The notes under the pieces: generated by a model
Told to the model about the DNA's origin: nothing
Seen by the model: the letters and a program-made list of their open reading frames with translations, nothing else
The model's database searches: none
Source: Shigella phage Sf22
Sequence record: MF158045
DNA: 64,000 bases
Direction: 5' to 3' (one strand)
Part shown: positions 24,063 to 27,920 of the stretch, one piece after another
Layout of the letters: each line of letters opens with the position of its first letter
How positions within the stretch are numbered: the first letter of the stretch is position 1
Translations under genes and position numbers: made by a program

Positions 24063-24746
24063 TTATCGTTTAGTTGGAAGAGATAGAGGATCGCATTCTT
24101 CCTCTGACGGAGCATCTTCAAGACCCATAGCATATCGCAAAGCATACTTCATCATCAGGATGTCTTTCGCACAGTCATGAATAGAATCATGTGCAACGAA
24201 TCCATCTAAAGTTCCTTTTGGAAGAGGACACGTGGTCATATCACGAACAAGCAGAAGTGCTTCAATTCTGGTACGAATATCACGCTGATTCCAGAATTTA
24301 CATGGTTCTAACTTAAATGTATCAAGCTCATTCTCGGAAACGCCATTAAGACGTTGAATATCGCGAATGAGATCGACTAAAATTGGAAAATCAAACGACA
24401 TTCCACGGCACCAGCCTTGAGATTTCCAAGGATCGATATTATGTGCATTGATGTAATCGTTGAATTTTGCAATACCATCAATGGTGCTTACATCTTCATC
24501 GGATGGTGCAATATTTTTTCGAGCTTCAGGAGACTGATTTTTCCACCATTCGATAGTGCTTTTAGTAAAAAGACGATGTCCTTTTTGGCTTTTTAAATCA
24601 AATTTGATTTTAATGCCACGTGAAACTAGTTCATCGAATGATTCAACTACTTCTGGGTTAGGGTCAAAAGCAATTACAGCCAAATCAATAACAGCTGCTT
24701 TTTCACCGCTTCCCATTGTTTCAAAATCTATAATAAAATCAAACAT
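24063..24746 (-). CDS. dexA: Exonuclease A DexA (DnaQ-like 3-prime to 5-prime exonuclease)
   Basis: 227 aa (T4 DexA 227 aa); N-terminal DFETMG-type exonuclease motif; adjacent to dda. Confidence 0.85.
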   Translation of the reverse strand: MFDFIIDFETMGSGEKAAVIDLAVIAFDPNPEVVESFDELVSRGIKIKFDLKSQKGHRLFTKSTIEWWKNQSPEARKNIAPSDEDVSTIDGIAKFNDYINAHNIDPWKSQGWCRGMSFDFPILVDLIRDIQRLNGVSENELDTFKLEPCKFWNQRDIRTRIEALLLVRDMTTCPLPKGTLDGFVAHDSIHDCAKDILMMKYALRYAMGLEDAPSEEECDPLSLPTKR

Positions 24747-25003
24747 TAAATTTTCCTCGCTAAATCACGAATTTGGCCTACAGTATAGTCTTGAATATAA
24801 ACTTTATTAATAGGCTCATCAATAAATTTTGCCATAGATTCAATATCTTTTTGTATCTCTTCAAGACTGTATACTATCTTTAAAGCTTTTTCGCGAATAG
24901 TAACATTATCAGGTCCTGAATTTTCTTGAATGACAGCTTTAACATTTGCCATAAGAGATTTAAACTGGTACCAACTTAATTCAATCATTAATAATCGCCT
25001 CAT
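24746..25003 (-). CDS. Hypothetical protein (85 aa), member of tandem paralog trio
   Basis: ORF track; shares a LEEIxxDI ... VxIxDYxxGxI pattern with the next ORF. Confidence 0.5.
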   Translation of the reverse strand: MRRLLMIELSWYQFKSLMANVKAVIQENSGPDNVTIREKALKIVYSLEEIQKDIESMAKFIDEPINKVYIQDYTVGQIRDLARKI

Positions 25004-25241
25004 AAAGATAGCTAATTTCGCCTAAAACGTAATCATTGATTGTAACAGTTTTCACTTCACCACAAAAGAATTCTAACGCAATTAAATCTCGTTCAATTTC
25101 TTCTAATTGAAGCATCAACTTACTAGATTCAATTTTTACAGTTTCACGATTTTTACCATGAGCAATTTCATAAATTTCGCTAACTTTATCCTGAAGAAGA
25201 TAAAACTGATCTTTAGTTATTTCCACGAATAGCTTCCTCAA
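24981..25241 (-). CDS. Hypothetical protein (86 aa), member of tandem paralog trio
   Basis: ORF track; similarity to neighbours. Confidence 0.5.
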   Translation of the reverse strand: MRKLFVEITKDQFYLLQDKVSEIYEIAHGKNRETVKIESSKLMLQLEEIERDLIALEFFCGEVKTVTINDYVLGEISYLYEAIIND

Positions 25242-25473
25242 ATTTAATTAGTAATTTACAGACACTTTCATCTAGTGTAATTACCGTATCTGTATTACTG
25301 TGATATGATTGTTTTTCAATTCGTTTAATTGCTAATATAGTATCACTTATAAGATAAAGCTTATGAAGGAGCTCAGCTCCTGTTACCATAACATTAAGAT
25401 TATCTTGCTTATTAGTATGCTTCCTTATACCATCTATTAGACGATTTAAATATTTTGAATTGATGTTAATCAT
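25213..25473 (-). CDS. Hypothetical protein (86 aa), probable third paralog
   Basis: ORF track; same size class and weaker similarity. Confidence 0.45.
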   Translation of the reverse strand: MININSKYLNRLIDGIRKHTNKQDNLNVMVTGAELLHKLYLISDTILAIKRIEKQSYHSNTDTVITLDESVCKLLIKFEEAIRGNN

Positions 25474-25479
25474 ATATCC

Positions 25480-26799
25480 TCACACATAAAACACATCATA
25501 ACGACCACGAGTGACACCTACATAAAGAAGTTGCTGAGCTAATTCAGCATCTGCATAATGAATACAAGGCGTATAAATGAAAGCACGGTCTACAGACATA
25601 CCCTGAGCTTTATGGAATGTTGATGCAGGAAGTGCTTTCACTTTACTGAACTGTGATTTAGCATCCCAAAAATCACTCCATGGAGCTTTTCCGCCTTTGT
25701 TCCAATTTTTATAAGTTTCTGCCGTTTTACCTAAAAATAGGTTAAACTTATATAGCTCTTCATCAGATGAAATTATTTTAATCTTTTCACGATAATATTC
25801 ATCATCGCCGTAAGTTTCTACTGTTAAATCCCAATGACGAATTAAGTATTCTCCAGGAACACCACGAGCTTTAACAAACGTTGATGTATACTCTGCTTCT
25901 ATAATACGAACTAATTGTCCATTATTAAAAATAATTTCTGATACAGGCTTTCCATCAATTTTATATGTTTTAATTAATGGTTCCTGCATTACAATAATTT
26001 CACCGACAATAAAATCTTTATCAGTTTCAAAAATCTTTTTACGAATAATGCTATTTAACTTGTCAACAGATTTATTCGTAAATGCCATTACGCGATTTTC
26101 AAACAAATCATCTAGAGATTTGACGATTGAAAAATAATTTACCATAAAATCGCGTAAAGCGGTATCACCAGTAAATCCACGTACTCCATGCCCGTCAACA
26201 ACTTTATCATAAATCCACTTACCGTTGCGAACATCAGTAGCTACATCAATAATAGGAGCATTACTGCGTTTAACTTCAGTGAGTTCACACTGATAAAAAT
26301 CTTTATGTGTAAAGAATGGACTGATATAAGCAGTGTTTTCTCCTGGGTCAACAGGTCTAATTTGCTTATTATCGCCTATTCCAATTATAGTACACCACGG
26401 TGGGATAGTTGAAAGCAAAATTTTGAAGAGCTTTCTATCATACATTGACACTTCGTCGCAGATTAATACCCTGCATTTAGCTAAATCTGGTACTTCTTTT
26501 TGTTCAAAAAGAACGTTTTCTTCATACGTAACTGGGTTAATTTTAAGAATACTGTGAATAGTACTCGCTTCTTTCCCCGACAGTTTTGAAAGAATCTTTT
26601 TAGCTGCATGAGTAGGAGCTGCTAAAATAATACCAGTTTCACCCGTAGATATTAAAGCTTCAATGATGAATTTTGTAAGAGTAGTCTTACCAGTACCAGC
26701 AGGTCCATTAATAGTTACATGATGTTTCTTTTCTTTAATAGCCCTCATAACGATGTTAAAGGCATTTTTTTGGCCTTCTGTCAAATCATCAAATGTCAT
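25480..26799 (-). CDS. dda: DNA helicase Dda (SF1B)
   Basis: 439 aa (T4 Dda 439 aa); Walker A GPAGTGKTT. Confidence 0.95.
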   Translation of the reverse strand: MTFDDLTEGQKNAFNIVMRAIKEKKHHVTINGPAGTGKTTLTKFIIEALISTGETGIILAAPTHAAKKILSKLSGKEASTIHSILKINPVTYEENVLFEQKEVPDLAKCRVLICDEVSMYDRKLFKILLSTIPPWCTIIGIGDNKQIRPVDPGENTAYISPFFTHKDFYQCELTEVKRSNAPIIDVATDVRNGKWIYDKVVDGHGVRGFTGDTALRDFMVNYFSIVKSLDDLFENRVMAFTNKSVDKLNSIIRKKIFETDKDFIVGEIIVMQEPLIKTYKIDGKPVSEIIFNNGQLVRIIEAEYTSTFVKARGVPGEYLIRHWDLTVETYGDDEYYREKIKIISSDEELYKFNLFLGKTAETYKNWNKGGKAPWSDFWDAKSQFSKVKALPASTFHKAQGMSVDRAFIYTPCIHYADAELAQQLLYVGVTRGRYDVFYV

Positions 26800-27108: not shown

Positions 27109-27855
27109 TTATCCTCGGATAAGTTTAAAAATTGAACAATTCAGCGGATATCCTCTTTTCAGTTTAAGTTTATCAATAAAAGACAAGTTTTGATACCGCT
27201 CTACACCTTGAATAATTTTATCACACATATCATATTGCATTTCTGCTTCTGACAACTTTTTCACAGTTTTCCAATCCGAGCCTTTAAGAAGAACGTTCAG
27301 TTTAACAACTTCAGCGCCTTCTGCTATGCGAGAACCATCAATACGAGCTTTAAGTGCTATAATTCTTAGCTTAATGTCAGAGGTCTGTTTTGATTTAGAA
27401 AGCTGAGAAATGTGTTCAATTCGGTTTTCACGTTTTTTCTGTATAGCTTTAATTTGATTATAAGTCTTTTTGATTTTAGCCCATTTCTTTTCATCTAAAT
27501 TTAGTTTATGAACTTTTTTCGCAGATGAACGACCAATTCGCAAAGCAAATAAATCACGCTTTTCAATCAACTCTTCTAAAGTATAATCAGAACGAAATGT
27601 ATTATACTTTTTCTTTACTGCAATAACATTCCCTTTAATGTATCCAACGTTATTATCAAAACGTTCTAATGATAATTTCTCTCCTTCAATACGATTATCA
27701 AAAGGTTCTCCCGAGTAAGCGCAAACTTTCTGATCTAAAATGTTCTTAATGTAATTGAAGTCTAAGTTAAAATCTTTAGAACGTCTTTTTGCAGATGCCT
27801 GAGTATGCTCTAAACGACGTTTAATTTTACGAATTTGATTATTAGACAGTTTCAT
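27109..27855 (-). CDS. srd: Srd-position protein (248 aa), lysine-rich, with degenerate HNH/EndoVII-like motif
   Basis: Position between dda and modA as for T4 srd; segment CAYSGEPF...LSLERFDNNVGYIKGNVIAVKKKYNTFRSD resembles an HNH core lacking the Cys ligands. Confidence 0.45.
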   Translation of the reverse strand: MKLSNNQIRKIKRRLEHTQASAKRRSKDFNLDFNYIKNILDQKVCAYSGEPFDNRIEGEKLSLERFDNNVGYIKGNVIAVKKKYNTFRSDYTLEELIEKRDLFALRIGRSSAKKVHKLNLDEKKWAKIKKTYNQIKAIQKKRENRIEHISQLSKSKQTSDIKLRIIALKARIDGSRIAEGAEVVKLNVLLKGSDWKTVKKLSEAEMQYDMCDKIIQGVERYQNLSFIDKLKLKRGYPLNCSIFKLIRG

Positions 27856-27890: not shown

Positions 27891-27920
27891 ACTATAACAT
27901 TTTTACTTTAACTTGTAAAC
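27891..27920 (-). promoter_or_regulatory. T4-type early promoter upstream of srd-position ORF
   Basis: Minus strand GTTTAC, 18 nt, TATAGT. Confidence 0.55.

Follow-up and report, generated by a model that had tools for sequence, protein, structure and literature searches.

The DNA analysed here, referred to as the window, is a 64,000-nucleotide stretch of Shigella phage Sf22 (MF158045). On its minus strand lie motB, motB.1, motB.2, dexA, three small ORFs, dda, dda.1, srd and modA, in this order. The three small ORFs are flanked downstream by dexA, encoding exonuclease A (24063..24746, minus strand), and upstream by dda, encoding a DNA helicase (25480..26799, minus strand). The region belongs to a Tequatrovirus closely related to T4. 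A 2-kb piece around the array shares 99.7% identity with its closest record, Escherichia phage JLBYU22, and at least 90% identity with nearly all of the 499 matching phage records. The preliminary description reported three consecutive, overlapping ORFs of 85, 86 and 86 aa, and an ORF scan confirmed these coordinates exactly, with longest ORFs at 24746-25003 (gene A, 85 aa), 24981-25241 (gene B, 86 aa, TTG start) and 25213-25473 (gene C, 86 aa), all on the minus strand. The true starts of genes A and B are probably internal, at ATG 24988 and GTG 25226 rather than at ATG 25003 and TTG 25241, as indicated by Shine-Dalgarno-like sites upstream and by the same starts in the T4 and Sf25 annotations. 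With these starts, gene A spans 24746..24988 (80 aa) and gene B spans 24981..25226 (81 aa), so both are probably shorter than the 85 and 86 aa of the longest ORFs.

Shine-Dalgarno-like sequences precede all three genes: GAGG at 25001-24998, 9 nt before ATG 24988 of gene A; GAGGAAG at 25239-25233, before GTG 25226 of gene B; and GAGGA at 25481-25477 for gene C, where it overlaps the dda stop codon. With the internal starts, genes C and B overlap by 14 nt and genes B and A by 8 nt (ATGATTGA), and the stop codon TAA of gene A shares one base with the dexA start codon (TAATG). This tightly overlapping run of genes suggests that the array is translationally coupled with dda and dexA. No support was found for ORFs that overlap the array on the plus strand (24556-24810, for example), and these were set aside. 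No match to RNA families was found in the array region, and promoter-like and terminator-like sites were not in excess there.

Genes A and B are readily assigned. Gene A shares 92.5% amino acid identity with T4 DexA.1 and matches phrog_1700 (E=1.2e-43), and gene B shares 97.5% amino acid identity with T4 DexA.2 and matches the same family (E=6.4e-49). Their orthologs carry PF26837 in the precomputed Pfam annotation of the protein database. T4 DexA.1 and DexA.2 are uncharacterised proteins of approximately 9.3 and 9.5 kDa, and the position, the overlapping arrangement and the internal ATG and GTG starts of their genes are all as in genes A and B. No difference of substance separates the two pairs, and the genome is that of a T4 relative, not of T4 itself. 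Gene C is 100% identical to AR1_017 and matches phrog_4967 (E=9e-59). This gene is annotated as a hypothetical protein just downstream of dda in T6, AR1, RB3, RB14, RB18 and many other phages. In databases it is an orphan with a PHROG of its own and no Pfam match; here it is placed in the DexA.1/DexA.2 superfamily. Gene C has no phrog_1700 match, and its orthologs do not carry PF26837. The paralogy of A and B was already known, since databases group these two long-annotated T4 ORFs of unknown function. The new points are modest: the orphan gene adjoining dda, carried by most T4 relatives, is recognised as a remote third family member, the slot is shown to hold zero to three copies in Tevenvirinae, and T4 and T2 have an identical 232-bp gap where this gene lies. 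We assign gene A to dexA.1, gene B to dexA.2 and gene C to a deeply diverged third copy with high confidence, both as to identity and as to paralogy.

The relationship between genes A and B is direct. The two proteins share 30% amino acid identity over 83 aa by BLASTP (E=3e-10), and both carry LEEIxxD(I/L) and VxIxDYxxGxI. These motifs had been proposed to be shared by all three proteins; they hold for A and B and fail for C, which has LYLISDTI and VITLDESVCKL instead. The LEEIxxD motif occurs only in the branch comprising A, B and the Dhakavirus copy. Protein identity among the three copies ranges from 14 to 30%. Direct comparisons with gene C were negative. BLASTP of gene C against A or B returned nothing (E>20), and hhalign of a narrow profile (A, B and the Dhakavirus type) against a gene C profile gave no alignment. 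An HMM of the A/B core scored gene C at 5.6 bits, a score reached by 105 of 5000 shuffles. A HMMER search of the A/B profile against 1.84 billion representative proteins returned 10 matches, with neither gene C nor any cellular homolog among them; nine of the ten are of the DexA.1/DexA.2 type, and the tenth, the 660-aa repeat protein P0121, was rejected as spurious.

The link of C to A and B emerged only once syntenic genes from other genera were added. Single-copy genes in the same slot of other Tevenvirinae (VR7 'dexA.2', CC31/UFV01, EcS1 ORF015, Mineola gp016 and TG1 gp022) encode proteins of 76-84 aa homologous to A, B and C, sharing 22-34% identity with the window genes and present in one copy where the window has three. 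These genes probably correspond to phrog_5263. In a library of 38,880 families, phrog_5263 was matched by C (E=1.4e-5), by B (2e-7) and by A (8e-4). A bridge HMM was built only from five single-copy syntenic genes of other genera, namely VR7 'dexA.2' (Gaprivervirus), UFV01 (Karamvirus), EcS1 ORF015 (Kagamiyamavirus), Mineola gp016 (Jiaodavirus) and TG1 gp022 (Tegunavirus). It scored B at 29.9, C at 25.9 and A at 25.1 bits, with a full-length, colinear alignment of C. None of 5000 composition-preserving shuffles of C reached the score of C (maximum 11.8 bits), and negative controls, unrelated small ORFs that more distant phages carry in this slot, scored at most 3.6 bits. The similar bit scores indicate that C is as close to the bridge group as A and B are. 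The bridge genes also match A and B by BLASTP, with E-values down to 8e-9, and in a nine-sequence comparison gene C aligned full-length and colinearly with the VR7 and EcS1 genes (26% and 22% identity, respectively, each E=0.002). A wider profile made without C gave it 16.9 bits, which none of 5000 shuffles reached, and ranked C third after A and B among the 374 six-frame window ORFs of at least 50 aa (E=1e-4), the next ORF scoring 10.8 bits. When this wide profile was compared with C by hhalign, a full-length alignment of 76 columns was obtained, with P=0.012 and a probability of 3.5%. All three genes share the features of the wider dda-dexA superfamily (phrog_1700, phrog_5263 and phrog_4967), being located between dda and dexA, on the same strand, and falling within 76-86 aa in length. 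Thus, the sequence evidence placing C in the same superfamily is significant but transitive.

Structure prediction, which the preliminary description had proposed as a check, agrees with this placement. AlphaFold2 models of A and C were built on family alignments; the A model is confident (pLDDT 95.1, pTM 0.83) and the C model is acceptable (pLDDT 82.1, pTM 0.71). In the A model, a strand (residues 2-5) is followed by helices 6-22 and 26-56, a strand at 62-65 and a helix at 67-79; in the C model, the corresponding elements are strand 2-5, helices 6-22 and 26-54, strand 64-67 and helix 69-84. The same strand-helix-helix-strand-helix order with nearly equal boundaries points to a common predicted fold. 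Each gene encodes a protein of approximately 9-10 kDa that is predicted to form a bundle of three helices with a short sheet of two strands. In a Foldseek search of predicted viral structures with the C model, the best matches after its own ortholog were proteins of 76-92 aa from T4-like phages, including those of Erwinia phage Cronus (TM 0.78/0.87) and Enterobacter phage CC31, the Dhakavirus-type copy (TM 0.75/0.81) and DexA.2 (TM 0.69/0.73, probability 0.99). Matches of C with DexA.2 and with the syntenic genes from other genera had Foldseek probabilities of 0.99-1.00. Proteins of this size class from T4-like phages, DexA.2 and the slot genes of other genera among them, are neighbours common to the A and C models. 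The C ortholog was not among the best 50 BFVD matches of the A model, and no solved structure matched.

These results bear on whether gene C is instead an unrelated small helical ORF in a variable slot, resembling A and B by chance or through convergence on a simple fold. The empty BLASTP and narrow hhalign comparisons and the low probability of the wide one speak for such an origin. So do the lack of PF26837 in C orthologs, the absence of C from the A/B profile search and from the best BFVD matches of the A model. The case for C as a member is built on transitive profile matches and on structures that are predicted, and the three-helix bundle is a widespread fold. The phrog_5263 match, the bridge HMM score far above the shuffles and slot controls, the equal length, position and order of secondary structure elements, and the high Foldseek probabilities to DexA.2 and the syntenic genes all argue against it, and we consider an unrelated origin of C improbable. 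The preliminary description, which had the three genes as tandem paralogs, with a clear relationship between the first two and a weaker one for the third, is therefore upheld: the A/B relationship is supported by BLASTP and phrog_1700, and that of C by phrog_5263, the bridge HMM, the wider profile and the predicted fold.

Across Tevenvirinae, the dda-dexA slot holds between zero and three genes, as a comparison suggested in the preliminary description showed. Mosigvirus phi25-307 has none; Dhakavirus, Gaprivervirus, Karamvirus, Kagamiyamavirus and Jiaodavirus have one; T4, T2 and Tegunavirus TG1 have two; and this window, T6, AR1 and many others have three. The second slot gene of TG1 (gp021) has no detectable similarity to the family (3.3 bits), leaving TG1 with one confirmed member. 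The family is confined to T4-like phages of enterobacteria. Gene C was found in 307 phage records at 88-100% identity, including T6, and is missing from T4 and T2. As dexA.1 is present at ≥80% identity in 478 records, C occurs in 307 of approximately 478 Tequatrovirus-level records (about 64%), and three genes is the common Tequatrovirus state. The triplication is thus not a feature particular to this genome, and two of the three genes are the dexA.1 and dexA.2 of T4. The junction, TTTTATGTATGATTAAATTTGAGG, is identical in T4 and T2; 232 bp are missing directly after the dda stop codon, while the last 24 nt or so of C, which carry the ribosome-binding site of dexA.2, are kept. We read this gap as a single deletion in the T4/T2 lineage; a precise insertion in the other lineages is less probable.

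Three same-sized genes arranged head to tail could suggest a recent tandem amplification selected for the dosage of one product, and dosage was among the pressures first proposed for this array. No direct DNA repeat longer than 20 nt was found in it, only chance repeats of 14-20 nt. Together with the protein identities of 14-30%, this shows that the duplications are old and not recent, and the same three genes form separate ortholog sets in hundreds of genomes. Recent amplification is refuted, with virtually no probability left to it, and the dosage proposal falls with it. We infer that the array goes back to ancient duplication, to which exchange between phages may have contributed, and that the copies then diverged and were occasionally lost. 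Alleles are mosaic: for example, the C gene of phage T-01 is 99.6% identical to that of the window and its B gene only 90%. In phage sb1, gene C carries a premature stop. The single Dhakavirus copy was also weighed as a chimera, with the N terminus of B and the C terminus of A, formed by unequal crossover. By segment identities, its middle and C-terminal parts are A-like and its N terminus is only marginally more B-like (8/19 vs 6/20). A 159-aa DexA.2-DexA.1 fusion in phage ime09 was considered as evidence of interaction between B and A and was rejected. The 1-nt deletion that causes it was found in ime09 alone among 190 records, so the fusion is probably a sequencing error, and it explains the 160-position profile of phrog_1700.

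The three ORFs are real protein-coding genes. Pairwise Nei-Gojobori dN/dS values were calculated among five or six diverged Tequatrovirus genomes, with small counts per gene, and ranged over 0.08-0.41 for A, 0.04-0.22 for B and 0.12-0.29 for C, compared with 0.01-0.04 for dexA. A, B and C are under purifying selection, and their proteins evolve roughly ten times faster than DexA. No positive selection was detected, and purifying selection is not specific to an arms race. DexA.2 was detected by mass spectrometry in T4-infected cells, in which the CBASS protein Cap2 conjugated cGAS to its Lys5 (PMC10097602). These data bear on whether the genes have lost their function and are remnants in decay, a reading to which the non-essentiality of dexA.1 and dexA.2 in T4, the loss of C in T4 and T2 and the premature stop in sb1 would all be congenial. 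Such decay is very improbable given that each of the three genes has a dN/dS well under 1 in diverged genomes, that hundreds of genomes retain the reading frames and ribosome-binding sites, and that the DexA.2 protein is made.

The array had also been described as a small early gene in three copies, which does not agree with T4 data. T4 dda.1, dda, dexA.2 and dexA.1 were reported as mainly middle-phase genes, and the one transcription start detected, followed by a 101-nt leader, could serve dda.1 through dexA.1 (bioRxiv 10.1101/2024.04.04.588121). In the window, a -10-like TAAAAT at 27220-27215 and an A at 27208 (27208..27220, minus strand) may correspond to the T4 start described there, judging from a reading of the sequence. 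By analogy with T4, the window genes are probably transcribed from a middle-phase dda.1 promoter.

Large-scale screens in T4 indicate that two of the genes are dispensable. CRISPRi-ART classified dexA.1 and dexA.2 as 'Not Fit' (PMC11879866 supplement), and HIDEN-SEQ classified both as 'Non-essential', with 24/24 TA sites hit (10.1101/2025.11.20.689424 supplement). In the rnlA comparison given in the HIDEN-SEQ supplement, the adjusted p for dexA.1 and dexA.2 is 1 (10.1101/2025.11.20.689424 supplement). The challenges in that study included RexAB, Mokosh type I and clinical isolates (supplement) and CBASS (main text); the name dexA is absent from the main text, which therefore does not discuss either dexA.1 or dexA.2 as conditionally essential (10.1101/2025.11.20.689424). 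Searches of the Pfam, NCBIfam and PADLOC libraries gave no match for the three proteins; the Pfam copy used did not include PF26837, and PADLOC covers defence proteins and not counter-defence. No enzyme-like motif was found in A, B or C. Positions conserved family-wide are for the most part hydrophobic ones of the core, together with a single acidic residue where helix 3, the last helix, begins. Among the copies, the net charge ranges from -10 to +2 and the pI from 4.4 to 8.8. The diversification suspected in the preliminary description is supported by this range of pI, by the variation from zero to three slot copies and the patchy presence of C, and by a dN/dS about ten times that of dexA.

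Colicin-type nuclease immunity proteins such as Im7 and Im9 are helical inhibitors of approximately 85 aa encoded beside a nuclease. The array proteins are similar to them in size, in being helical, in having an adjacent nuclease gene and in apparent translational coupling, which amounts to a functional analogy. Structural similarity to an immunity protein together with obligate co-occurrence with a nuclease, the features of that class, were not found for A, B and C.

The main rival to the role proposed below is that A, B and C are accessory or regulatory subunits of Dda and/or DexA, such as loaders, specificity factors or inhibitors in fixed ratio. Wherever the family was found among the genera examined (Tequatrovirus, Dhakavirus, Gaprivervirus, Karamvirus, Kagamiyamavirus, Jiaodavirus and Tegunavirus), it lies between dda and dexA. 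Overlaps of start and stop codons extend from dda.1 to dexA, with apparent translational coupling, and a single T4 transcript from dda.1 to dexA.1 has been reported (bioRxiv 10.1101/2024.04.04.588121). Against such a role, dda directly adjoins dexA in Mosigvirus, with zero copies, Aeromonas phage 31 has no annotated gene in the slot, and other genera fill the slot with proteins of no detectable similarity to the family. The copy number varies from 0 to 3, T4 and T2 manage without C, and dexA.1 and dexA.2 are dispensable. Vertical transmission of a genome that is colinear in general may be enough to account for the conserved position. We regard dedicated subunits of Dda or DexA as unlikely.

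The preferred explanation is that A, B and C are small modulators that act by binding other proteins. They are most likely not enzymes, and probably are small stoichiometric binding proteins with a stable core and rapidly changing surfaces, a reading suggested by the conserved hydrophobic core, the varying charge and the lack of any enzyme motif or family match. Each paralog would bind a different partner, of the host or of the phage, and modulate or block it. Their non-essentiality in T4 by CRISPRi-ART and HIDEN-SEQ suggests that the proteins may matter only in some hosts or conditions. We hold this mechanism tentatively, at somewhat short of an even chance; the identity and paralogy of the genes and the binding-modulator explanation, taken as a whole, stand slightly better than even.

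An anti-defence role, as raised in the preliminary description, is one version of the binding-modulator model and, like a host-modulating role, a guess. In this version, the family would consist of diversifying counter-defence or host-takeover binders, and part of the known variation among T-even phages in host range or defence sensitivity might be due to C; we give it a low probability. If it were true, the conjugation of cGAS to Lys5 of DexA.2 by Cap2 would be a real immune encounter and not a mere consequence of abundance (PMC10097602). The array does not reveal a new mechanism. Collectively, the dda-dexA slot provides a natural series of zero, one, two and three copies for work on T-even accessory genes, and gene C is a specific candidate for differences between T4/T2 and T6-like phages.

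The names 'dextranase', 'exonuclease', 'tail assembly protein' and 'tail sheath stabilizer', carried by dexA.1 and dexA.2 orthologs in RefSeq and GenBank, are propagated naming errors without sequence support. In phage AR1, dexA.2 (L001:2482-2616) is annotated with a product of just 44 aa, an annotation that overlooks the GTG start; its DNA is essentially identical to that of the window, whose dexA.2 codes for 81 aa. In phage ime09, DexA.2 and DexA.1 are annotated as one fused protein of 159 aa (NC_019503 8960-9439; L019:761-1240), produced by a 1-nt deletion at the overlap of the two genes. Since this junction occurs in ime09 only, among 190 matching records, a sequencing error is the probable cause of the fusion, which seems to account for the 160-position length of the profile of phrog_1700, the PHROG family that holds DexA.1 and DexA.2.

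A few database proteins are themselves unusual. P0119, labeled 'DexA.2', systematically has N in place of D, K in place of E, N in place of G, and I in place of V, as G-to-A changes along the whole sequence would produce. This protein looks like the product of an assembly from chemically converted or damaged reads, and a natural variant is unlikely. Proteins P0005 and P0108 comprise a DexA.2 sequence that is labeled Enterococcus faecalis and comes from a 2.2-kb contig, and a 141-aa ENA protein from a 639-bp contig, which joins a DNA methylase domain (PF02384) to PF26837, the Pfam family found on DexA.1 and DexA.2 orthologs. P0005 and P0108 are probably contamination or chimeric assemblies.

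The dda-dexA slot of Yersinia phage TG1 (Tegunavirus) contains a second gene, gp021 (76 aa; L007:2774-3004). Its product scores 3.3 bits against the profile of the small proteins of this slot, with no detectable similarity. This gene could be another paralog that has diverged even more, or else an unrelated insertion.

Gene C, the dda-proximal member of the array, appears to have left a trace in T4 and T2. The junction 3' of the dda stop codon is identical in T4 (L002, about 1890-1925) and T2 (L018, about 885-925), corresponding to 25213-25482 of the window. Within it lies a 12-codon relic ORF (MIKFEEAIRGNN) that joins the first two codons of gene C to its last ten; the ATG of this ORF and the stop codon of dda overlap (ATGA). 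The C ortholog of Shigella phage sb1 (L012, 1201-1458) has lost its last seven codons to a premature stop, and dda in the sb1 record is broken into three CDS; the sequence may be of low quality, or the decay may be real.

The best sigma-70-like promoter match of the scanned stretch (TTTACA, 17 nt, TG-TATAGT; 10 of 12 positions) lies at 27891-27919 on the minus strand, directly upstream of srd, the expected place for a strong early promoter.

Comparison of dexA.2 (24984-25226) with loci L010, L011, and L012 (sb1) revealed two allele classes, AHGKNRET...IND...SYLYEAI versus AYSKNRKN...ISD...SHLYKAV. Which class a phage carries is independent of its allele of the neighboring C gene, a pattern of shuffling that indicates recombination within the array.
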